A DNA stretch of 64,000 nucleotides from Gammaproteobacteria bacterium (GTDB taxonomy: Bacteria; Pseudomonadota; Gammaproteobacteria; Eutrophobiales; Eutrophobiaceae), in assembly GCA_965240365.1 (NCBI GenBank), contig OZ251218.1:2254356-2318355 (forward strand), given 5' to 3'. Below the pieces are notes generated by a model. It saw only the letters and a program-made list of their open reading frames with translations. It had not been told where the DNA came from and searched no databases. Shown here piece by piece: positions 4,740 through 48,010 of this stretch (position 1 is the stretch's first letter; each line of letters starts with the position of its first letter). The translations under genes were made by a program, and so were the position numbers.

Positions 4740-5200
4740 TCATCCCGGCAAGCCGGGATGTATTTTATAAACCACTGGATTCCAGCTTTCGCTGGAATGA
4801 CGATGGGGGCAATAGGCGCATTATGAGCGATACTAAACGATACCGTGGCCAGGATACCTGACGCCTTATTTTAGATAAGGTGACCCTGCATTCCTGCTAA
4901 AGCCCTGCCTGCTATAGGCAGACAGGATGACGGAAAGCCAAAACAACACCTCGTTGTCATTCCGGCGAAGGCCGGAATCCAGGAGGACGGGCCGGGATGT
5001 GAAATGAGCGCCAGTCCTGCCTGATTGTCATTCCCGCCTGAGCGGGAATGTATTACATAAACCACTGGATTCCAGCTTTCGCTGGAATGACGGGTAGTAA
5101 GCGGACTGCTGTTTGCCGTTTCTCTGACTTTGTTATCATGCCGGTCTACCCGGTGAAGGCAGGCAGGACGCCGCATGCCGGACATCCTGTGCATAAATGA
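4740..5200. repeat. About 460-bp palindromic-repeat array between fecR and the TonB-dependent transducer
   Basis: gtcattccagcgaaagctggaatccagtggtttat, cattcccgctcaggcgggaatg, cattccggcgaaggccggaatccaggag modules, several in inverted orientation. Confidence 0.7.
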
Positions 5201-7239: not shown

Positions 7240-7480
7240 CGTCATTCCAGCGAAAGCTGGAATCCACGCCTGCCGGAGGCAGGCCTGCCTGCTGCAGGCA
7301 GGTAGCGGGGTGGCAGCTAATTCAGCGGGGTCTGTTGGAATGAGGTATTCAGATGGTCATTCCCGCTTATGCGGGAATGTATTGTATCAACCACTGGATT
7401 CCAGCTTTCGCTGGAATGACGATGGGGTGTTGTTCCGGCTTTACATCATTCCGGCCTGCCTGCCGCAGACAGGCTCATGC
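7240..7480. repeat. Palindromic repeat cluster
   Basis: cgtcattccagcgaaagctggaatcc, ctgcctgctgcaggcagg, cattcccgcttatgcgggaatg modules. Confidence 0.6.
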
Positions 7481-7546: not shown

Positions 7547-8212
7547 TTATGCCTGCCCCTCTCCGTCATTCTGGCGGGTCCGAGACGGGCAGGCCCCGGA
7601 CTGTCGTTTCCGCAGAAAATATTGTCTGGCCACCCAGACGCAGAACAGCGGCGCGCCCGCGCCCGCGAGCAGCAGGAAGTAGTAGTCGAGTTGCAGCAAG
7701 GTCACGATCGGGGTCAGGTATAAAATATCCTCGGCTTCCAGGAACAGCTTTTCTACATCGGCATCCCCGGCGTTTGCCGATTTTTTTTCCAGTTCGGACA
7801 GCCCGTGTATGAAGATAAAGATAGCGGCCACCGCCAGACCGGAAATGCCGCCCAGGAGGCCGGCATGGCCGCCGGCGCCGCCCTGCATCAGGCCGATGCC
7901 CAGGCCGACAAACAGGGAGATATTCACCAGCGCGTCCGAGTACAGGTCAAAATAATGCCCGAATGCGCTGCTGTTGCCGGTCAGGCGGGCCAGTTCGCCA
8001 TCGGTGTGATCGAGGAAATTGGAGATCACAAAAAGCAGCGCGCCGATATTGGCGTGCAGATAGCCGCCCACGCAAAAAAAATAGAACGCGAGCAACCCGC
8101 AGGCGAGACGCAGGGCGGTCAGATGGTTAGGCGTGATGAAGGTGTTTTTTAAGGGATAGACCAGGCGGCAGGCCAGCCGCGCGTCCCAGGGTTTGTCCTC
8201 AGCCCCGGCCAT
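7547..8212 (-). CDS. CDP-alcohol phosphatidyltransferase family membrane protein
   Basis: Exact D-x2-DG-x2-AR-x8-G-x3-D-x3-D motif (DHTDGELARLTGNSSAFGHYFDLYSD); multiple TM helices; start overlaps the stop of the upstream hpnN-like gene by 14 bp. Confidence 0.75.
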   Translation of the reverse strand: MAGAEDKPWDARLACRLVYPLKNTFITPNHLTALRLACGLLAFYFFCVGGYLHANIGALLFVISNFLDHTDGELARLTGNSSAFGHYFDLYSDALVNISLFVGLGIGLMQGGAGGHAGLLGGISGLAVAAIFIFIHGLSELEKKSANAGDADVEKLFLEAEDILYLTPIVTLLQLDYYFLLLAGAGAPLFCVWVARQYFLRKRQSGACPSRTRQNDGEGQA

Positions 8213-10793
8213 GATTCCCCCCGGACGGATTCTGCCAGATTAAAAAGGCGGGCAGTACCAGCAGCGTGGCGATCATCATCGAAATCAGGCCGGTTGCGAG
8301 CAGCAGGCCCATACTGGCCGTGCCGAGGTGCGCCGAAAAGGCCAGATTGCCGATGCTGAATACGGTCGTCAGCGAACTGATGATCACGCCGCGCGTGGCG
8401 CTGGTGCTAAAGATATTGCGCTTGTGGCCCTGTTCCTGCCGAAAACGATCCGCGATATGGATCGCGCTATCGACGCCGATGCCGAGCAGCAACGGCAGGC
8501 CGATGATATTGGCGAAATTGAGCGGGATCTTAAACAGCAGGATAAGGCCGGCGGTAAAGAGCCCGCCGGTCAGGACGGTCAGCAGTATCAACACGGCGTC
8601 CCGCTTGACCCGGACCAGCAACAGCAGCAATAGCGTGATCGCGATCAAGGCGTAGCTGAACGCGGAGGTAAACGCCGCGATCACGGCCTCGCCGGCCTCG
8701 ACCCGGATAACGGGCAGGCCGGTCACGGCCGCGTCTTTTGCCTGTAGCTGCCGGACAAAACGCGCGATGGCCGGATTATCATTCAGGTCTTCCTTTGGTT
8801 GCAGTTGCAGTTTATAAACCCCGTCGCTGAGCCAGCGATCACGCGCATCGTCCGGCAGGCTGTCCAGAGTAACCGGCCCGGCCGCGAGCGCGTCATTCAG
8901 GCCGTCGATGCGCCCGTTCAGGTTGCCGAGCATCCGTTGTTCAATGTCCGGCAGCCGCTCAGGGGCGAGCAGGGCGCGGTTTAGATTGGCATACAGCCTG
9001 TCAAGCCGCGCGCCGCGGTTTTCCTGGCTGACAGTTTCAAGCCGCGCCAGGAATTGCCGGAGCGCCGCGGTCCGCGTTTCGTTGTTAATCCCGGGGCCTG
9101 CCGCCATCTCCAGCGGCCCCATAAACAGGTTCATGTCATCAATAATAAATAATTTTTCCTGCTGGTTTTGGGGGATCAGATCGGGCAGCCAGATCACATC
9201 GTCAACCAGTTCCAGCGCCGCAAATTCCTCTTTAGCCCGTTTGGCCTCGGGTATTGATTTTTTTAACAGCAGGCCGTGCCAGGGCGAGTTGTCAGGCTCG
9301 CTTAAAAGGTCTCTATAGGTTTGCACCGATTCATTTTCGGGGTCTTGTAGATTGAGCGGATTAAAATCAAAATTCAGCCGGTGTATCTGCGAAAGCGCCG
9401 CCGCGCCAAGCAGGGCGGCGACCAGCAGTATTTGTTTTGGATAGCGGTACGGTATGCGGCTCAGGCGGTCTGCCAGGGCGGCGATGCGCTGGTTGGCGGG
9501 GCGGGGTCGGCAGGGTTTCAGGCTTAACAGCGCCGGCAGCAACAGGAAGGTATAGAGCACGCTGATGAACATGCCGCTGCCGGCTATCCAGCCCAGTTCG
9601 GCCACGCCCTCATAGTCTGTCGGGATAAACGAGTAAAAGCCGATCGCCGTGGTCAGCGCGCATAAGGCCAGGGAGCGAAAGAGAGTGAGGCCGGCGGTCT
9701 TTAATGCGCCCTCCGGTCTTGCGCCGGATAAGATCTGTTCCCGGTAGCGCAGCGTCAGGTGAATGGCAAAATCAATGCCGAGGCCGATATACAATACCGC
9801 AAAGGCCACCGAGATCAGGTTCAGTTCGCCGACCGTGAGCGTGGCAAAGGCGGTGGTCGCAATCAGCCCCATTAATAATGTTATGAGACAGGCGCCGACC
9901 AGCCACCATGATCCCAGTCCGAGCAGCAACAGGCCGCTGACCAGTATGATCGAGGCGGCGATCGCCACGGTATTGGCCTTTGCCACACTTTGCAGTTCTT
10001 CATTGGCCAGCGCCACGCTGCCGGTCAGGCGGATATTCGTATTGCCGCGGTTCAGATCGAGCGCGGCGCCGGCCGCGCGTATCTGGCGGATAGCCTCGGC
10101 CCCCGGCAGGAAGCCGGCCCCCGGTTCCACTTCCAACAGGATGAATTCACGGTAAACCGCCTTTTGTGCGCTGTTGACAGCCATCAACCTTTGCCAGGAA
10201 ACGGGATAGCGCTCATCTTCCAGGCTGCGGTTCAACTCGGCCAGCAGGGCGTCAATGTCAATATCCTCGCCGGCCTCAATGGCCTGCAAGGCGTTGTCCA
10301 GCATGGCGAACAGGCCGCGCAGGTTATTATCCTGCAACAGCGCGCCGAGGAAGGGCTGAATCTGCGCGAGTTGATCTGCCAGGCTTTGCAGTTCTGTTTC
10401 CTCAAGAAACAAAAAGGCGGATTCACGGAAAAAAGGCAGCGCCGGCGGGTAATAAACCGATTTGATCCACTCCGGTTCGGAAGCCAGCGCCCGCGTCAGG
10501 CGCAGGGCGCTGTCGGCGGCCTCGTCCGGCGTGGCGGCTTCGACCACGACCAGGATGGTATTGACAAACTGCGGAAATAATCTTTCATATTCGATATCCA
10601 GTTTGCGCCAGTCCAGTTCCTCGGACAGCATATCGGCCGTATCGGCGCTCATGCCGAGGTTGTCTTTGATATAGAAGACAGCGCCGAGCGTCAGCGCGAT
10701 GACGCCGAGAATAATGGCAAGACGGCGCCGTTCCACGAACGTTATCCAGCCCGTAATGAATCGCTCCGGCCATGTCGGGGATGATGGGCGCAT
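8199..10793 (-). CDS. hpnN: MMPL/RND-superfamily exporter, HpnN-like (hopanoid transporter)
   Basis: 864 aa, 12 TM in two 6-TM bundles with large periplasmic loops; last gene of the sqs-shc-hpnG operon; gene symbol from context and size. Confidence 0.7.
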   Translation of the reverse strand: MRPSSPTWPERFITGWITFVERRRLAIILGVIALTLGAVFYIKDNLGMSADTADMLSEELDWRKLDIEYERLFPQFVNTILVVVEAATPDEAADSALRLTRALASEPEWIKSVYYPPALPFFRESAFLFLEETELQSLADQLAQIQPFLGALLQDNNLRGLFAMLDNALQAIEAGEDIDIDALLAELNRSLEDERYPVSWQRLMAVNSAQKAVYREFILLEVEPGAGFLPGAEAIRQIRAAGAALDLNRGNTNIRLTGSVALANEELQSVAKANTVAIAASIILVSGLLLLGLGSWWLVGACLITLLMGLIATTAFATLTVGELNLISVAFAVLYIGLGIDFAIHLTLRYREQILSGARPEGALKTAGLTLFRSLALCALTTAIGFYSFIPTDYEGVAELGWIAGSGMFISVLYTFLLLPALLSLKPCRPRPANQRIAALADRLSRIPYRYPKQILLVAALLGAAALSQIHRLNFDFNPLNLQDPENESVQTYRDLLSEPDNSPWHGLLLKKSIPEAKRAKEEFAALELVDDVIWLPDLIPQNQQEKLFIIDDMNLFMGPLEMAAGPGINNETRTAALRQFLARLETVSQENRGARLDRLYANLNRALLAPERLPDIEQRMLGNLNGRIDGLNDALAAGPVTLDSLPDDARDRWLSDGVYKLQLQPKEDLNDNPAIARFVRQLQAKDAAVTGLPVIRVEAGEAVIAAFTSAFSYALIAITLLLLLLVRVKRDAVLILLTVLTGGLFTAGLILLFKIPLNFANIIGLPLLLGIGVDSAIHIADRFRQEQGHKRNIFSTSATRGVIISSLTTVFSIGNLAFSAHLGTASMGLLLATGLISMMIATLLVLPAFLIWQNPSGGNHGRG

Positions 10794-10834: not shown

Positions 10835-10975
10835 CCGTTATCCTGGCCACGGTATCGTTAGTATTGTTCATAATATGCCTATCGCCCCCGTTGTCATTCC
10901 AGCGAAGGCTGGAATCCAGTGGTTTATGTCATACATTCCCGCCCAGGCGGGAATGACAATTCCCCCGCTATGTTA
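10835..10975. repeat. Palindromic repeat cluster
   Basis: ttgtcattccagcgaaggctggaatccagtggtttatgtcatacattcccgcccaggcgggaatgacaat. Confidence 0.6.
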
Positions 10976-10979
10976 GTAA

Positions 10980-11339
10980 TTAGATGAGGTGACCCTGGCC
11001 CTCATAAATCTGCCTCTTTGTAAACAGCGCTTTGGCCACAAAGTCAATATGTCTTTTTAACGGCGGATAGCTGATGTGTTCATACAGGGTGATATCGACC
11101 TTGTGCGGAATCATGCTTTCCAGAAAGCAGGTATAGAGGCGATCGCCGTCCCGTTCGCTGATGTTGCCGTAGAGCACCAGATCAATATCGGAGACGCGCG
11201 TAAATGTCCCGGTCGCCCGGGAGCCAAACAGCCCCACTCGTTCTATGGCGGCGCAGTTGTCTCTTAAGATATCCCTTATGCTTTGCAGATATTGCTTTGC
11301 AGATATTGCGGTTTTATGCCGTGCTTCATTCCGCTTCAT
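10980..11339 (-). CDS. Minimal nucleotidyltransferase (MNT/MntA-type antitoxin of HEPN/MNT module)
   Basis: GS-x9-13-D-x-D signature (LFGSRATGTFTRVSDIDLVL); 119 aa; overlaps upstream HEPN gene by 14 bp. Confidence 0.75.
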   Translation of the reverse strand: MKRNEARHKTAISAKQYLQSIRDILRDNCAAIERVGLFGSRATGTFTRVSDIDLVLYGNISERDGDRLYTCFLESMIPHKVDITLYEHISYPPLKRHIDFVAKALFTKRQIYEGQGHLI

Positions 11340-33546: not shown

Positions 33547-33639
33547 TGTGAATCCTCCTGTTCAACTCGCTCATGCGACAGATAAGAAAGCATAAACACT
33601 CTGCCGGCTTCGGGCAAGCCCGTGCCCGGGTTCAATACT

Positions 33640-34110
33640 TGTGAGATAAATCAGGGCTGCCTGCTGCCAGTAGGCGCCTTGCCAGCCGGAACAGTGTGTT
33701 TGGTTGTCATTCCCGCTTTCGCCGGACGGCTACGGGCATCCTCGGCAGCTTGTTCCTGACACTGCTCTACCACCTACGTCCTGTAGGCGTGCCCTCCCTG
33801 CCTGCTGCAGGCAGGTCGCCGCATACAGGACTTCCTGTCCATAAATGACGGTAGGGGCGGAATGTCCAAGTTCAACAACATACAAGACAAATCAGGGAGG
33901 TAGGGAATCCGTAGAACTGCCTGCAACAAGCAGGTTAGCGCAGATTATGTGTTGTTCTGTTTGGCCTGTTGCTGACGGGCGGGAATGATGGAAAGTGAAT
34001 TTCAGCTACGTCGTCATTCCGGCGAAAGCCGGAATCCAGGACAGTAGGGCCGGAGAGTGAAATAGATTACGATTCTGTCTGCCTGCCTGCTGCCAACAGG
34101 CTACAGGCAG
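33640..34110. repeat. Palindromic repeat cluster
   Basis: ctgcctgctgccagtaggc, gtcattcccgctttcgccggacgg, ctgcctgctgcaggcagg, ccataaatgacggtaggggcgg, cgtcattccggcgaaagccggaatccag modules. Confidence 0.6.
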
Positions 34111-34441: not shown

Positions 34442-34711
34442 ATGACTGACTTACTTGCAACTGAAAAGACCTATCTAGCTGATCACCAATCCGAACTTGT
34501 GCAGAAACACCCCGGCAAATTCCTGTTGATAAAGGGAAAAGCCGTACATGGCGCTTTCCAGACTTACGAACAGGGTGTGATCGAGGGAACGGCGCGGTTC
34601 GGCGCCGGCCCCTTCCTGGTTCGCGATGTCTCTGCCACTTCTGATCCCGAAGCCCCGAACATACCGGCCTTGTCCATTGGGCTGCCGTTCACCCGCCTTG
34701 CCGATAATTAA
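34442..34711 (+). CDS. Small conserved protein (89 aa) that precedes a retropepsin-like protease; family not confidently assigned
   Basis: Substitutions against the partial duplicate at 35811-36037 are almost all synonymous in this frame, supporting protein coding. Confidence 0.6.
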   Translation: MTDLLATEKTYLADHQSELVQKHPGKFLLIKGKAVHGAFQTYEQGVIEGTARFGAGPFLVRDVSATSDPEAPNIPALSIGLPFTRLADN

Positions 34712-34728
34712 CCCGAAAGTCCAGGCCC
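34501..34728. repeat. Copy 1 of a 228-bp direct duplication (second copy at 35811-36037)
   Basis: About 94% identity; one 1-nt indel at the left edge; copy 1 lies within the small-protein gene. Confidence 0.9.
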
Positions 34729-35594: not shown

Positions 35595-35860
35595 CAGTGG
35601 TAATCGCTAATCTCAACATCAGCGGGGCCGTTCGGCGTCCAGACAAGGCAAATATGCCATTGGCGATTGATCCGCACGGCATGTTGCCCGGCCCGGTCGC
35701 CTTTCAGTGCTTCCAGCCGGTTACCCGGCGGAAGGCGTAAATCCTCCACGACAACCGCGGTATCCAGGGCCGTGAGCAGCGCCCGCGCGCGCTTTCTGCC
35801 TTGATATACCGCAGAAGCACCCCCGGCAAATTCCTGCTGATCAAGGGAAAAGCCGTACAT
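35594..35860 (-). CDS. higB: HigB toxin (RelE/ParE superfamily) with a chimeric N-terminus
   Basis: C-terminal LKGDRAGQHAVRINRQWHICLVWTPNGPADVEISDYH matches HigB. The first 13 codons (MYGFSLDQQEFAG) are encoded antisense to copy 2 of the 228-bp duplication. Confidence 0.65.
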   Translation of the reverse strand: MYGFSLDQQEFAGGASAVYQGRKRARALLTALDTAVVVEDLRLPPGNRLEALKGDRAGQHAVRINRQWHICLVWTPNGPADVEISDYH

Positions 35861-36037
35861 GGCGCTTTCCAGACTTACGAGCAGGGCGTGATCGAGGGAA
35901 CGGCGCGGTTCGGCGCCGGCCCCTTCCTGGTTCGCGATGCCTCTGCCACTTCTGACCCCGAAGCCCCGAACATCCCGGCCCTGTCCATTGGGCTGCCGTT
36001 CGCTCGCCTTGCCGATAATTAACCCGAAAGTCCAGGC
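35811..36037. repeat. Copy 2 of the 228-bp direct duplication; carries a 5'-truncated paralogue of the 34442-34711 gene (ORF 35801-36022)
   Basis: Alignment to 34501-34728; the reading frame is preserved with only synonymous changes. Confidence 0.9.
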
Positions 36038-36056: not shown

Positions 36057-36362
36057 CTAAGATGCGGATGCGGCTTTTGCGGCCTTGATGAGGTCTGCTG
36101 TGCGCAAGGGTTCGGGTACGTATTCAAGCGCATCCCCGTCCTGTGTAACCGCCGCCCGGCACATCTTCACGGTGCGCAGGGGTTTGGGCATAAATTTCAA
36201 CTTCACGTCTGTTGCAAAAAATACGAGGATTGCGATGCCCCCTAAGATCAGGAGAACCGTTGGATATCCTTTTACTACCAAATTAAAGATTGATAGATAG
36301 ATCAAGTATCCTATGATTCCGTAAAATATCAGCAAGATGAATCTGGAACTTCCTATAGACAT
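36057..36362 (-). CDS. Small 2-TM membrane protein encoded at the 3' edge of the low-GC island. The reading frame runs on into flanking high-GC DNA, which resembles a DUF4116-repeat fragment
   Basis: N-terminal 60 aa (two TM helices) is AT-rich; C-terminal AVTQDGDALEYVPEPLRTADLIKAAKAASAS is GC-rich and DUF4116-like; 37 bp downstream of the 742-aa gene on the same strand. Confidence 0.4.
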   Translation of the reverse strand: MSIGSSRFILLIFYGIIGYLIYLSIFNLVVKGYPTVLLILGGIAILVFFATDVKLKFMPKPLRTVKMCRAAVTQDGDALEYVPEPLRTADLIKAAKAASAS

Positions 36363-36399
36363 AGCGATCTTTTCTATTTTTAGTTAATTTGGTACAAGG

Positions 36400-38628
36400 C
36401 TAATTTTCTTCATATTGCTTCTGGAAATCTGACTGAAGTTGTGTAGAAGCTTCTGCAAGCAACACTTTGGCTCGCGAATCATCAATTTCATCATATACTT
36501 CTTTGGCTTTTGAAATTATCTTTTTGAAGGCATCTTCATCCATCCTATTACCGAGTTTTACTCCAAGCATAGAAGGAAAGATTTTGTCGTAACTACTTTG
36601 GACAGACTTTGCAGAAGGAATTGATGCAAGATAATGGATCAGAAACTCAGGCCGCATCATATATCGCGCGCCCTCTTTCGATACTAAGCTTCTAGTAGCA
36701 CTTTGAACTCTCGTTTGCTGTGTTAACCACCACGTTTTGAATCCATAAGGGTTTCCACCACTGCGTTCACTATCGACTCTACGTTTTTGAAATATGCGCA
36801 GTATAGTTAAAGCAGCGTTTCTTGATAAGATTTCTTCGCTCGCGTTATCTCTATCAATTCTATTGCGGTTATTTTTAATGTCGGATGTAAGCTGATTTAG
36901 ATCGGTTTTATTTACACCTGACAACATTTCAGCTTCGTTTTCATAGTAGAAACCGAACTCGTTTATTAGATACTCTCTTAATTCATCTCGTGAGGATGGT
37001 TTAGTAATCCTGTTTACTGTGAGAAACTTACCTAAGTAGGTTTGCCATCCAGATAGTGAATTGTTCTTAGATACTGGCTTAAGTTTGGCATAAAAGTAGG
37101 CACGTATTAAAATGCGATCAATATGGCTAGCAAGCGTTAAGTCGATATAATTTTGAATATTTTCATAATTGTTTACAAACTCAAAGTGAGTTATTTTGAG
37201 ATGATTCCACACTTCGTCGAGCGTTTTCTCCGTTAGAGCTAGTTTCGATCCAGCCGTTTTGAGAAGCTTTAAAGTATTTTTGGTCTTCTGATCTTCTTTC
37301 ACGAGCATTTGCTCTGACAATGCCTCTACAATCAAGTCAGCACCAATGTAGAGATTAAAGTTTGAGGTCATTCTTCTAAAATATTCCAAGATCCGAGGTT
37401 CATTTTTCAGCATGAAAAGAAGAATATATGTTCGGGATAACTTACGAAAGTAGCGTCTCTCTACTTCCGAACTGTTATAGTAAGCACCTCGTAAAATACT
37501 TGAACAGGTCTGGAAAATGAGTTCGGCATTTTTACCGACAAGTCCTTGATCTTCAATTTCTCGGCCCAGAAAATCTTTGATTAAAGGAAGATCGCTATCA
37601 CTTCCTTCTGCACGCTCTAGGAAAAGCACGATCTCAAGCCCTTGAGCGTGAAATGATCGATGTATAACATTATGACAGATTTCGACGCACTGTTCGATTA
37701 TTTTTGTGTTATTTGTCGCCAAGGACGTATTCTGAGCTGCTCGATTGCGAAAGATATTACTAACGTCTTGCTTTAGCGCTTCGTCCTTAACATTTTCATC
37801 GTGGATCATCTTTCTAGTTTCATAAGGCAAGCAATATCCCTTCTCTTTTCGATGATAGTTAACTTTCCGTCCGCCGTTTCCTTTGGTAGTTAGTGCATTA
37901 ATTCTATGCTTGACAATACCTCTAAAGAAAGTTTTAGCGGATGGTAGCGTCTCAATTACGCGCGTTTCAATATTGGAAAGCGATAGAAATTTACCCTTAT
38001 CAGGATCTGTTCCTTCAAGCGACCAAAGAATTAAACTATCAGTCACTGTTTCAAGAAGTTCAGTTTTCCCGCGCTGGCACTCAAGTTCCTGCCCAAGGAA
38101 CACAAAAAGTGTTTTTGCTGGAAGGCCTTGGATAGTGTTGGGCACATACCCTGTGCCGATGCCTTCCAGAAAAGAAGCTGCATCAGCAACGTATGTTTTG
38201 TAGGCTTGTAGTGCACCCGGAGTGTTGTTGATATGAGATTGGAAGTAATATCCATCTCGAATAACAATTCGACAGTCTAGTTCATCGCTAAGTTCATCCT
38301 GAATTTTATCTATCAGAGTTAGCTTTTGGTTAGTAGCGTAGATCAAACTCTTTGGATCGCGATCAAATTCTCTAAGTCGTTTTAGAGTTTTGCGAATCTT
38401 TGTCTTAGGTTCTACTGTAACGGATGCTTGCATGAACTTTTGAGTGCCACCTGCTTCGAAAATGCGATCATCTATCACCCCGTCAGCACCACCATCATGA
38501 AAACCTCCCATAGGCACATAGTCGACACCAATAGAAGACGCAAAGAACTCTTGTGCGAACTTTTCGAAATTGACTCCTTCCACTTTCGACAACGCAATTT
38601 CAATTACTCTTGTATCGACAATATCCAC
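36400..38628 (-). CDS. Uncharacterised 742-aa protein with N-terminal Mrr-type restriction-endonuclease-like (PD-(D/E)xK) domain and a long alpha-helical C-terminal region
   Basis: FEKFAQEFF...GVDYVPMGGFHDGGADGVIDD...FMQASVTV...SLIYATNQKLT follows the Mrr_cat pattern (FE..l.....G.....DgGiDg....vQcK....ilvTt); no P-loop; region GC about 40% against 62% background. Confidence 0.75.
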   Translation of the reverse strand: MDIVDTRVIEIALSKVEGVNFEKFAQEFFASSIGVDYVPMGGFHDGGADGVIDDRIFEAGGTQKFMQASVTVEPKTKIRKTLKRLREFDRDPKSLIYATNQKLTLIDKIQDELSDELDCRIVIRDGYYFQSHINNTPGALQAYKTYVADAASFLEGIGTGYVPNTIQGLPAKTLFVFLGQELECQRGKTELLETVTDSLILWSLEGTDPDKGKFLSLSNIETRVIETLPSAKTFFRGIVKHRINALTTKGNGGRKVNYHRKEKGYCLPYETRKMIHDENVKDEALKQDVSNIFRNRAAQNTSLATNNTKIIEQCVEICHNVIHRSFHAQGLEIVLFLERAEGSDSDLPLIKDFLGREIEDQGLVGKNAELIFQTCSSILRGAYYNSSEVERRYFRKLSRTYILLFMLKNEPRILEYFRRMTSNFNLYIGADLIVEALSEQMLVKEDQKTKNTLKLLKTAGSKLALTEKTLDEVWNHLKITHFEFVNNYENIQNYIDLTLASHIDRILIRAYFYAKLKPVSKNNSLSGWQTYLGKFLTVNRITKPSSRDELREYLINEFGFYYENEAEMLSGVNKTDLNQLTSDIKNNRNRIDRDNASEEILSRNAALTILRIFQKRRVDSERSGGNPYGFKTWWLTQQTRVQSATRSLVSKEGARYMMRPEFLIHYLASIPSAKSVQSSYDKIFPSMLGVKLGNRMDEDAFKKIISKAKEVYDEIDDSRAKVLLAEASTQLQSDFQKQYEEN

Positions 38629-38749
38629 TCAGTGATCTCTAATTAAGATAGCGATAGTTTTATGATAACATCACATATCGCCAACGTTGTCAATAAAAGA
38701 ATGATCTGAAGTTCTCTCATTTTTTGCCCTAGAGATAAAACTAAAACAA

Positions 38750-38905
38750 TACTCCATCGTCATTTATGGACAGAGGTGAAGTGAAATATTCGTTGTCATT
38801 CCGGCCTGTCTGCCGCAGGCAGGCGAAAGCCGGAATCCAGAAGGCGGCGCCAAGGTGGTGTATGGACTCCCGCCCGTGCCTGACTGCGGCAGGCAGGAAA
38901 CCCTG
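38750..38905. repeat. Palindromic repeat cluster at the right border of the low-GC island
   Basis: tcgtcatttatggacagaggtg, gtcattccggcctgtctgccgcaggcaggcgaaagccggaatccag, ctgactgcggcaggcagg. Confidence 0.6.
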
Positions 38906-38912
38906 GTCGATT

Positions 38913-39725
38913 TTATTTCAAATTCAGCACATCCCGCATGTCGAACAGTCCCCTGTCCTTGCCGGCCAGCCATTTTGCGGCCTTGAGCGCGCCGTTGGCG
39001 AAGGTTTTTCTGGAAGACGCCTTGTGTGTTATTTCGACACGTTCGCCGTCCGCGGCAAACAGGACCGTGTGTTCGCCAACCATATCGCCCGCGCGGATGG
39101 TTTGAAAGCCGATGCTGCCGGGCTTTCTTTCTCCGCTTCCGGCCCGGTTATACTCGGCGCATTCGCTTAAATCGCGCCCCAGCGCCGCGGCCACCACTTC
39201 GCCCATGCGCAGGGCCGTGCCCGAGGGCGCGTCTTTTTTGTGGCGATGGTGCGCTTCGATGATCTCGATGTCGGTGTCGGCGCCGATTGCCCTGGCCGTC
39301 ATCTCCAGCAGTTTGAGGCAGAGGTTGACGCCGATGCTCATGTTCGGCGCATAAACGATGGCGATCTGGTCCGCGGCGGTCTCCAGCAGTTTATGGTCTT
39401 CCCGGCCGAGGCCGGTCGTGCCGATGACCATTTTTGTATTGGTGGCCACACACTTCTGAATATTGGCCGCAAATCCGGCGGCCAGGCTGAAATCAATCAG
39501 CACATCGACATTATCAGCGGCATTATCACCCAGCGCAGCAACACCCGTGACCGGCACGCCGAGCCTGCCTGTCCCGGCCAGTTCACCGGCGTCTCGCCCC
39601 GCCGCGGGTGATTTGTCGTGTTCAATCGCGGCGGTGACTTTAACGCCTTCTGTCTCGTGACAAAGCGCCAGGATGGTTCTGCCCATCCGGCCGGCCGCGC
39701 CGCATACTCCAATTTTGAGTGTCAT
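38913..39725 (-). CDS. dapB: 4-hydroxy-tetrahydrodipicolinate reductase
   Basis: [18 protein letters not shown](P) motif, [15 protein letters not shown] active-site region, 270 aa. Confidence 0.9.
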
Positions 39726-39759: not shown

Positions 39760-40901
39760 CTAACCGGTCATGGATTCAAAGAATTTTTTGACGCCGTCCA
39801 GCCATGAACTCGCCTGCGGGCTGTGCCGGGCGCCGCTTGATTGCATGGTTTCATCAAATTGCCGCAGCAATTCTTTTTGTTTGTGATTGAGTTTAACCGG
39901 CGTCTCGACCACGACCCGGCAGAGCAGATCGCCTTTGGCCGAGTTGCGCACCGAGCGCACGCCTTTGGCGCGCAGGCGAAACATCTTGCCGCTCTGGGTT
40001 TCGGGCGGTATTTTCAGTTTCACCTTGCCGTTGAGCGTGGGCACTTCGAGTTCGCCGCCGAGCGCGGCCGCGACAAAGCTGATCGGCACATCGCAGTGCA
40101 GATCAGTCCCCTCGCGCGCGAAGATAGGGTGCGGCTTGACGTTGATATGCACATACAGATCGCCGGCCGGGCCGTTATTTTCCCCGGCCTCGCCCTCGCC
40201 CGAGAGCCGGATGCGGTCGCCGTTATCCACGCCCTCCGGCACCTTGACGGAGATGGTCTTGCTGTCCTGCACCCGGCCCTGGCCCTGGCATGAGGCGCAC
40301 GGGTCGCTGATAATCCTGCCCTGCCCGCGGCATTGCGGACAGGTTTGCTGCACCGAGAAAAAGCCCTGTTGCATACGCACCTGCCCATGCCCGTCGCAAG
40401 TCGGACAATTGGCGGGCGCGCTGGATTTGCCGGCCCCTGATCCGCGGCAACTGGCGCAGGCCGTCATCCTGGGGATGCGGATCTTGACGGTGGTCCCCGC
40501 GACCGCGTCTTCCAGCGAAAGCTCCAGGTTGTACGCAGGTCCGCGCCGCGGTAAACCCGGCTGCCGCCGCGGCCGCCACCGCCAAAGATGTCACCGAAGA
40601 CGCTGTCAAAGATATCGCCCAGCCCCGCGCCCTGGCCAAAGCCGCCCTGCCCCGCGCCAACGCCGGCGCCGGCATCGACCCCGGCATGGCCGAATTGATC
40701 ATAAGCGGCGCGCTTTTTTGCGTCGGAAAGCACATCGTAGGCCTCTTTGGCCTCCTTGAATCTTTCCTCGGCCCCGGCGTCGCCCTCGTTGCGATCAGGA
40801 TGGTATTTCATGGCCAGCCGCCGGTACGCCTTTTTGAGGCCGGCCTCGTCGGTGTTTTTTGAAACACCGAGCACTTCGTAATAGTCTCGTTTATTTGCCA
40901 T
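39760..40901 (-). pseudogene. dnaJ: Chaperone DnaJ with an apparent 1-nt deletion frameshift (or sequencing error) near 40533
   Basis: J-domain and G/F region in ORF 40464-40901; Zn-finger CxxCxGxG repeats and C-terminal domain in ORF 39760-40467 in the +1 frame. Conserved [13 protein letters not shown] is split: observed gacctgcgtacaacctggag, expected cgt tac aac. Confidence 0.85.
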
Positions 40902-41039
40902 GCCGTTAAGTTTTTTATGATCGCTTAAAAACGCGCCTGGTACCGATGAAAACCGGCAACAAGATACGCACAAGCCCGGAGAAGATGAACATCCCCGGGC
41001 TTGTGTCCATGCCACCGCGCTCGATCAAGGCGCCAGGCC

Positions 41040-45044: not shown

Positions 45045-45245
45045 ATGGGAAATGGGAACAACACCTCATCGTCATTTATGGACGGGATGTCCTGTATGCG
45101 GCGACCTGCCTGCTACAGGCAGGGCTCAGCGGGAAAATGACAACCAAACACACCATTTTGACCAGCCTGGAACGGCCAGACAGCGCCGGAATCCGTTTCA
45201 CACCCCGGCCCCGCCTCCTGGATTCCGGCTTTCGCCTGCCCATGT
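45045..45245. repeat. Palindromic repeat cluster
   Basis: catcgtcatttatggacgggatgtcctgtatgcggcgacctgcctgctacaggcagg ... cctggattccggctttcgcc. Confidence 0.6.
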
Positions 45246-45258
45246 TAAGTTGACTTCT

Positions 45259-47516
<2,258 letters not shown>

Positions 47517-47639: not shown

Positions 47640-48010
47640 TTGCGGCAGGTAGCAGACAGGCGAAAACCGGAATCCAGGAGGGCGATGCCGTAGTGTAAAA
47701 CAGATTTCGGTTCTATCTGCCTGTAACAAGCCGTTCAGAATCAGGCATTTGTTGTCATTCCCGCTTGGCGGGAATGTATAATGAAAACCACTGGATTCCG
47801 GCTTTCGCCGGAATGACGGCGGGGGTTATTCTCGCTCCCGTCATTTATGTAGGCGCGCGCTCTGGAATAACCGATTCTTAACTTCATACACTATCGTCAT
47901 TCCGGCGAAGGCCGGAATCCAGGAGGGCGGGCCGTGGTATGAAACAGATTCGGGTTCTGTCTGCCTGTATCAAACCGTTCAGAATAAGGCATTTCCGGAA
48001 TGACGACGGG
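47640..48010. repeat. Palindromic repeat cluster (about 370 bp)
   Basis: cgaaaaccggaatccaggagggcg, gtcattcccgcttggcgggaatg, cactggattccggctttcgccggaatgacggcggg, tcgtcattccggcgaaggccggaatccaggagggcggg; internal 2x duplication. Confidence 0.65.

Follow-up and report, generated by a model that had tools for sequence, protein, structure and literature searches.

A solitary, horizontally transferred candidate defence nuclease with a non-canonical PD-(D/E)xK site and a split PIN fold in a gammaproteobacterial genome

The question raised by this locus is whether an AT-rich gene for a protein of 742 amino acids (aa), which lies among genes of higher GC (guanine plus cytosine) content, is a defence gene and, if so, whether it acts alone or together with the small open reading frame (ORF) for a protein with two transmembrane segments (2-TM) that follows it. 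The gene is located on contig OZ251218.1 of a gammaproteobacterium of the family Eutrophobiaceae (assembly GCA_965240365.1), in a stretch of 64,000 nucleotides (nt; positions 2,254,356 to 2,318,355) that was analysed as a whole and is referred to below as the window. An original prediction had proposed here a two-gene membrane system in which the large protein combined an Mrr-like nuclease domain with a long helical sensor. From this proposal, the candidate defence gene of an AT-rich, acquired type is retained in our analysis but the two-gene membrane system and the helical sensor are not. On balance, with confidence somewhat above even, we favour a reading of the 742-aa gene as a solitary candidate defence nuclease, acquired by horizontal transfer and directed against phages or other mobile DNA. 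The family to which it belongs is unnamed, is not represented by a Pfam, NCBIfam or PADLOC model and is structurally unsolved, with one distant member flagged in a supplementary table only. It is not a categorically new system and belongs with the single-gene, nuclease-based defence candidates.

The gene and the domains predicted in its product occupy the following positions in the window.

36400..38628, minus strand: the 742-aa gene, with a GTG start as given in the ORF list; member of an unnamed family of ~740-aa proteins
38224..38628, minus strand: Mrr/Avs4-type PD-(D/E)xK nuclease-fold domain, residues 1-135
37825..38061, minus strand: winged-helix domain, residues ~190-268
36649..37368, minus strand: PIN (VapC-like) fold, residues ~421-660, split by a helical insert at ~481-595

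The GTG start agrees with the N-termini of the homologues in the alignment. From this start, the protein proceeds through the PD-(D/E)xK domain (1-135), linker helices, the winged helix (~190-268), a helical region (269-420), the PIN domain (421-660) and C-terminal helices. The predicted structure of the N-terminal domain contains the PD-(D/E)xK fold that the original prediction had proposed, with a restriction-endonuclease-like alpha-beta-beta-beta-alpha-beta core, and the motif string on which that proposal was based (FE..DGGADG..Q..IYATN) is present and conserved in the alignment of homologues. The description of the remaining ~600 aa as helical and devoid of motifs is incorrect because this part of the protein contains the winged helix, which presumably binds nucleic acid, and a PIN-like domain with an alpha/beta/alpha fold. 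The full-length AlphaFold2 model has a predicted local distance difference test (pLDDT) score of 76 and a predicted template modelling (pTM) score of 0.56. A Pfam search yielded no family at E<=1 and an NCBIfam search no meaningful family, whereas the sole match in PADLOC-DB v2.0.0 was a weak one (E 1.4e-4) of residues 12-109 to the restriction endonuclease (REase) part of an Argonaute-associated effector model; the impression that the protein as a whole falls into no named family thus stands for both Pfam and PADLOC. Sequence searches of the PDB with the whole protein and with an N-terminal profile gave nothing meaningful, and a Foldseek search of the full model against 350,542 PDB chains gave no match at E<=1e-3, so that no solved protein has the same architecture. 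One metagenomic member of 883 aa (P0079) carries an internal duplication of ~140 residues that extends from the end of the nuclease domain through the linker and winged helix.

The conservation of the two putative active sites was surveyed in 165 full-length family sequences, down to 25% identity. In the N-terminal domain, E22, D45 and Q67 are invariant in all 165 sequences, and K77 is present in 164. Position 69, where the lysine of the (D/E)xK motif is expected, is occupied by S in 134 sequences, by T in 29 and otherwise by C or G, and never by K. K77 sits in the first turn of the helix that follows position 69, and we infer that it may stand in for the absent lysine; the N-terminal domain would be an active, albeit non-canonical, nuclease. 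In the PIN domain, D431, E439 and E472 vary little or not at all across the family. The full acid tetrad, with D at position 605 and E/D at position 638, is present in 105 of the 165 sequences; in 54, including the entire clade of the window protein, these third and fourth acidic positions are occupied by A/S/T and Q/R. The window protein itself keeps D431 and E472 but has A605 and Q638. In most members, the PIN domain is probably a second nuclease, whereas in the window clade, with A605 and Q638 in place of two acids, it is predicted to be catalytically dead. In a neighbour-joining tree, the complete tetrad is basal and the two acids have been jointly lost on at least three independent occasions. 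Because these losses occurred while the N-terminal site remained unchanged, the N-terminal site appears to be indispensable and the PIN catalytic site dispensable. The repeated loss of the PIN site beside an invariant, non-canonical PD-(D/E)xK site is, in our opinion, the most interesting specific result of this analysis, and it offers two mechanistic handles: a lysine that has apparently shifted to the neighbouring helix, and an asymmetry between the two sites that points to the effector domain.

How, then, does the family relate to known nucleases? The Mrr_cat family (PF04471) does not match the window protein in Pfam at E<=1, and distant members of the family score 19.5, 18.5 and 14.2 bits against a cutoff of 21; the catalytic D...(D/E/Q)-x-K triad of Mrr_cat nucleases is incomplete, in that D45 and Q67 are invariant but there is no lysine at position 69. 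The canonical QxK lysine of the Avs4 effector is similarly replaced by S or T. Furthermore, the STAND nucleoside triphosphatase (NTPase) and the tetratricopeptide repeat (TPR) sensor of Avs4 have no counterpart in the 742-aa protein, for which no P-loop match was obtained in Pfam, NCBIfam or PADLOC, and which has the winged helix and the PIN fold in place of these modules. The nuclease domains of FokI, MspJI/AspBHI and Avs4, which are structurally the closest, act as dimers or tetramers, and by analogy the 742-aa protein might be activated by oligomerisation. The short prokaryotic Argonaute (pAgo)-associated REase effectors (PADLOC Aga_REase-TIR-PNTD1-PNTD2) account for the weak PADLOC match mentioned above, and similar weak matches were found in three distant family members; however, the likeness is confined to a REase segment of ~95 residues, and no APAZ, TIR or Argonaute partner accompanies it. 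Compared with VapC-type PIN toxins, the 742-aa protein lacks two of the four catalytic acids, has no Pfam PIN match and devotes only about one third of its length to the PIN domain. A validated one-protein defence system with a split PIN, DS-3, has been described (PMC13092281), but hhalign detected no homology to it (probability 0.13).

A functional parallel would be with Type IV restriction enzymes. In this version, which we treat as a serious sub-variant of the defence reading, the protein is a solitary, modification-dependent endonuclease, where the winged helix, perhaps jointly with the PIN-like body, reads modified DNA and the Mrr-type domain cuts it. Recognition of modified foreign DNA would make a methyltransferase or an immunity partner unnecessary. 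A generic winged helix is present; however, the Pfam search detected no Mrr_N, SRA or other known modified-base reader. Moreover, the domain order is the reverse of that in Mrr, MspJI and AspBHI, the canonical lysine is absent, the Pfam threshold for Mrr_cat is not reached, and ~470 further conserved residues, including the PIN fold, have no Type IV counterpart. Given these differences, we consider a Type IV-like mode of action unlikely, although clearly worth keeping in mind beside the broader interpretation of the gene as a defence nuclease.

Several features of the family speak for horizontal transfer of the gene. A word-indexed search returned at least 471 homologues, nearly all of ~740 aa and all named 'hypothetical', and an exhaustive search of 1.84 billion representatives with a hidden Markov model (HMM) of the family found 1,256 clusters at 50% identity with E<=1e-3, 446 of them with E<=1e-30. 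The best 150 representatives are collinear over the full length, and hence there are no N-terminal domain swaps among these. The genomic context was examined for a sample of 78 loci from species-representative genomes, which cover Alpha-, Beta- and Gammaproteobacteria, Actinomycetota, Acidobacteriota, Nitrospirota, Spirochaetota, Planctomycetota and Rhodothermales. About 12 of the 78 copies are frameshifted or interrupted, and in 63 of 73 loci the GC content of the family gene is below that of its flanks, by a median of 12 points. Members of the family are scattered patchily over phyla, are more AT-rich than the genomes of their hosts and are uniform in length. If it is indeed a defence gene, it represents a widespread one-gene system, with more than 1,200 50%-identity clusters in at least 8 phyla, that is invisible to current annotation tools. 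The literature search found no description of a single-gene system that combines a REase with a PIN domain. In a Bryobacterales copy (L064, 6316-7377 and 10001-11059), an insertion of ~2.6 kb lies between residues 368 and 379.

An independent prediction of a defence role concerns a distant, plasmid-borne relative. Among 72,556 plasmids searched with tblastn, eight from Escherichia, Citrobacter and Klebsiella code for a 735-aa protein annotated as 'hypothetical', WP_016156503.1. This relative aligns collinearly with the 742-aa protein at 22-23% identity and is matched by the family HMM over positions 5-728 of 742 (E 1.9e-47 for a database size of 1.8e9). The two proteins share the full-length architecture and the E, D, Q-x-S, K pattern of the N-terminal domain, and differ in that WP_016156503.1 has the full PIN acid tetrad, with N-D and T-T-D motifs, whereas the window protein is without two of these acids. 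The plasmid gene, too, is solitary and lies in a mobile, defence-type context: on IncF-type plasmids, it adjoins a Ppl-like defence ATPase (PADLOC Ppl, 6e-35) and IS1/IS3 elements. Of 5,426 complete Escherichia coli genomes, 5 carry the gene, each time on a plasmid, with copies that are 100% identical. PADLOC gave no match for this relative. In the DefensePredictor study (Science 2026), Table S10 lists WP_016156503.1 as row 12 of 1,041 uncharacterised predicted defence clusters, under the label 'Predicted novel defense gene', with a mean log-odds of 14.2 against a strict cutoff of 4; the nearest known protein given there is Avs4A, over 19% of the length and with a probability of 96.2 (PMC13092281). 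Neither WP_018430111 nor WP_016156503 was found in the main texts of the literature searched. This rare E. coli member makes the defence hypothesis directly testable in standard phage panels.

These data also bear on the possibility that the gene encodes an AT-rich housekeeping enzyme of DNA or RNA processing. Strong purifying selection, the uniform architecture and the position of the window copy beside dapB and dnaJ would be compatible with such a role, but the patchy distribution, the varied contexts, the pseudogenes, the consistent GC deficit and the restriction to plasmids in only 5 of 5,426 E. coli genomes are not. A housekeeping role is therefore highly improbable, and we reject it.

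If the gene is a candidate defence nuclease, the next question is whether it has partners. When all ORFs within 5 kb of the 78 loci were clustered, no neighbour family was found in more than 6 of the 78, which implies that the gene is solitary. Recurrent neighbours include restriction-modification genes (type I restriction-modification subunits, type III and type IIG methyltransferases) and genes of mobile elements, namely serine recombinases/resolvases, Mu/Tn7-like transposases, TnsB, IS66/IS4 and MobA relaxases. Other neighbours with a defence or toxin-antitoxin connection are the PADLOC candidates PDC-S01, PDC-S02 and PDC-S08, a defence-type reverse transcriptase, SoFic, Cas1, VapC and HigBA, and numerous ordinary housekeeping genes likewise occur in the neighbourhoods. 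Among individual loci, the closest relative fetched with its context (P0005, 71% identity) adjoins DarTG, HipBA and a DUF3427 helicase; a Bradyrhizobium copy has an IS21 element, a TIR-domain gene and a resolvase next to it; a Rhodothermales copy adjoins a 969-aa methyltransferase-type protein; a Brucella pituitosa copy lies at the edge of a P2-like prophage; and a Hoeflea copy adjoins an integrase.

Several of these loci have features of their own. The Hoeflea island (L079, 16968-22223) also codes for a 1,258-aa protein without a Pfam match and for a single-subunit T7-like RNA polymerase (RPOL_N, RNA_pol). In a plasmid-like metagenomic element with ParA and a resolvase (L088, 191-3038; also L089-L091), the family gene is preceded by three overlapping genes on the same strand, for proteins of 456, 377 and 116 aa without Pfam matches, which may form a lineage-specific operon. 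Three alphaproteobacterial copies (L008, L024 and L026) directly adjoin uvrB, which suggests a recurrent insertion hotspot.

The same neighbourhoods could be read as a sign that the gene serves the mobile elements that carry it, either as a post-segregational or addiction toxin or as a weapon in the competition between plasmids, integrative and conjugative elements (ICEs) and prophages. Frequent adjacency to resolvases, transposases, integrases, MobA relaxases and ParA fits this picture, as do the copy at a prophage edge and the E. coli copies, which are exclusively plasmid-borne (5/5,426 genomes) and 100% identical. However, there is no conserved antitoxin-like partner; furthermore, many copies form islets the size of a single gene, set among housekeeping genes without a surrounding element. 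We regard a role in the service of mobile elements as rather improbable, while noting that such a role and defence overlap and need not strictly exclude each other.

Several observations weigh against a defence nuclease as well. The canonical catalytic lysine of PD-(D/E)xK enzymes is absent from every member of the family, and neither an NTPase nor another known switch is present in the 742-aa protein. The confidence of the full-length structural model is moderate, at the pLDDT and pTM values given above. A per-domain entropy scan produced a fairly even profile, with no hypervariable segment such as a phage-sensing surface might show. The association with defence genes is moderate, and many copies, that of the window included, lie among housekeeping genes. 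A tblastn search of 50,697 phage records gave no match, so that the prophage carriage hinted at by the Brucella locus is unconfirmed. Finally, the table of cloned and tested systems in the DefensePredictor study does not include WP_016156503.1, which figures there as a machine-learning prediction only (PMC13092281). It is because of the missing lysine and the moderate association with defence islands that our confidence in a defence function is held only a little above the midpoint.

Should the gene be a defence nuclease, its product might work as follows. The winged helix would bind nucleic acid, and the helical/PIN body would regulate or sense, keeping the nuclease inactive until an infection cue promotes oligomerisation. 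The N-terminal domain would be the DNA-cutting effector, using E22, D45 and Q67, with K77 in place of the missing lysine. The PIN domain would act as a second nuclease in most members and, predicted to be dead in the window clade, could serve there as a scaffold or binding module. The downstream 2-TM ORF plays no part. More tentatively, and with odds well below even, the family might represent an as yet undescribed class of NTPase-free, single-polypeptide immune nucleases, whose PD-(D/E)xK DNase would have a relocated catalytic lysine (Q-x-S/T plus a helix Lys) and would be controlled by a body of winged helix and split PIN; the PIN domain, ancestrally a second nuclease, would repeatedly have been turned into a non-catalytic sensor or scaffold in several lineages, that of the window protein among them.

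The structure of the locus itself supports the acquisition of a single gene, and three further features, all on the same strand as the gene, are relevant here.

38629..38757, minus strand: AT-rich leader, ~130 nt in length, that precedes the GTG; its GC content of 0.33-0.44 rises to 0.6 farther out, and repetitive extragenic palindrome (REP)-like repeats begin at 38758
36379..36399, minus strand: 3' junction of the acquired unit, at most 21 nt past the stop codon; the similarity of the window to L093, a record without the 742-aa gene, starts at 36378
36057..36362, minus strand: 101-aa 2-TM ORF with two hydrophobic segments, starting 37 nt after the stop codon of the 742-aa gene

The GC content of the 742-aa gene is 39.6%, compared to a mean of ~58% in the flanks and 56.9% in the window; in 400-nt intervals, it is 0.34-0.43 over ~36200-38800 and 0.55-0.64 on both sides. 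The low-GC island of the original prediction is thus real, although the 62% assumed for its background was somewhat high. The AT-rich stretch is, however, composite: the unit that includes the 742-aa gene ends at 36379-36399, and the AT-rich DNA at 36200-36362 is the TM-coding part of a different gene. The 3' border follows from the comparison with L093, where similarity to the window begins at 36378. At the 5' side, the leader presumably comprises the promoter region and the 5' end of the acquired unit, although a scan for the sigma-70 consensus found no strong site in it. In close relatives, upstream similarity is limited to ~50 nt, with a TATATGGTG-like box, AGGAG and GTG, and the downstream flanks have nothing in common; accordingly, transfer involves essentially just the gene and its short leader. 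The best explanation of these observations is that the gene was acquired as a gene-sized unit of ~2.4 kb (36379-38757) with its own short leader. The search for terminal repeats or conserved flanks as the boundaries of a mobile cassette was negative, and a hunt for the empty site by exact-match look-up of P0001 and the window DapB gave no match. The sister strain (L092) is 98.4% identical to the window over the whole island.

The small ORF was the basis of the two-gene model, in which the nuclease-domain protein and the 2-TM protein would form one system. The ORF list bears out that the 2-TM ORF lies on the same strand, 37 nt downstream, both genes are AT-rich there, and the pair is kept in the sister strain, where the gene caller of the record did not call the small ORF. 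Beyond the sister strain, however, tblastn found no homologue of the 2-TM ORF beside ~90 other family loci, and a TM-like small ORF of any sort is located downstream of the gene in only 3 of 56 loci. The expected co-occurrence of the large gene with a small TM gene across genomes is thus not observed, and the ORF is absent beside every other family member examined. Its single homologue among 5.8 billion proteins, P0277, is encoded in L093, flanked by slt and mfd and without a 742-aa gene in the vicinity, and is followed, with an overlap, by a 429-aa protein of DUF4116 repeats (10 matched stretches, E 5e-89). In L093, the TM-anchored DUF4116 gene occupies 8001-9559 and is itself split into two ORF calls, of 96 and 429 aa, that overlap; its array consists of ~17 tandem 24-aa repeats (ALEYVPExLRTAELCxxAVEQDG), of which one is present in the window and in L092. 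The 2-TM ORF of the window corresponds to the TM start of an L093-type gene fused to its last repeat. It is, accordingly, the remnant of an unrelated TM-DUF4116-repeat gene, in which an array of ~17 copies has collapsed to one. Because the similarity to L093 begins between the two ORFs, 16 nt before the ATG of the small ORF and 21 nt after the stop codon of the large gene, the two belong to different sequence modules. As a property of the family, the two-gene model is already refuted, and we give it hardly any weight for the window. The correction matters to anyone who would clone the 'system': the cloning unit is the single gene with its leader of ~130 nt.

The surroundings of the candidate nuclease gene in the window are mixed. 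Its right-hand neighbours are dapB (38913..39725), dnaJ and dnaK. On the left side are genes for HigA-like and HigB-like proteins, a duplicated 217-nt segment, a retropepsin-like ORF, a ParD-like remnant and a PNPOx gene. The HigA-like helix-turn-helix (HTH) protein matches HTH_3 (4e-7), the HigB-like toxin is N-terminally truncated (PF05015, 3.5e-10, profile positions 28-82 of 91), and the retropepsin-like ORF scores 1e-3, which is below the threshold. The flanking repeat clusters and toxin-antitoxin genes that had been noted before are confirmed, together with the ParD remnant and, with the qualification of its sub-threshold match, the retropepsin-like ORF.

REP-like palindromes of the type ATTCCGGC-GAAA-GCCGGAAT are clustered at ~33590-34110 and 38758-38900. 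Clusters of the GTCATTCCGGC-GAAA-GCCGGAATCCAG and CTGCCTGCTGCAGGCAGG types bracket the whole cassette region; a 19-nt direct repeat occurs in both without mismatch (34021-34039 and 38822-38840), and a perfect 16-nt inverted pair links them (33835-33850 and 38758-38773). Further REP-like copies are present in the window at ~650-1000, 4790-5070, 7350-7400, 10840-11000 and 47750-47800. A reading of the region as integron cassettes was dropped, given that the repeats are REP-like palindromes and no integrase is nearby, although the attC structure was not formally tested. Scans for tRNA, tmRNA and Rfam families around the island gave no match.

The 217-nt segment is directly duplicated at 34510-34726 and 35821-36037, with 95% identity between the copies, and covers both the end of an 89-aa ORF and the beginning of the retropepsin-like ORF. 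Its second copy is truncated and stands in the place of the N-terminus of the HigB-like toxin; the module is found again at another locus of L093.

Two differences from the sister strain lie in the dnaJ region. The gene (39760-41015) is broken in the window into ORFs of 183 and 235 aa, whereas that of L092 is intact, with 382 aa. The break results from a 1-nt deletion at ~40533 relative to L092 (CTGCGCTACAAC -> CTGCGTACAAC), and is either an artefact of assembly or genuine, in which case an important chaperone gene has become a pseudogene; a difference of one 6-nt repeat unit is found at ~40289. Farther to the right, a gene for a TonB-dependent receptor (45225-47426) is only 81% identical to its counterpart in L092, compared to 98% in the flanks, which points to allelic replacement or to diversifying selection on a surface receptor.

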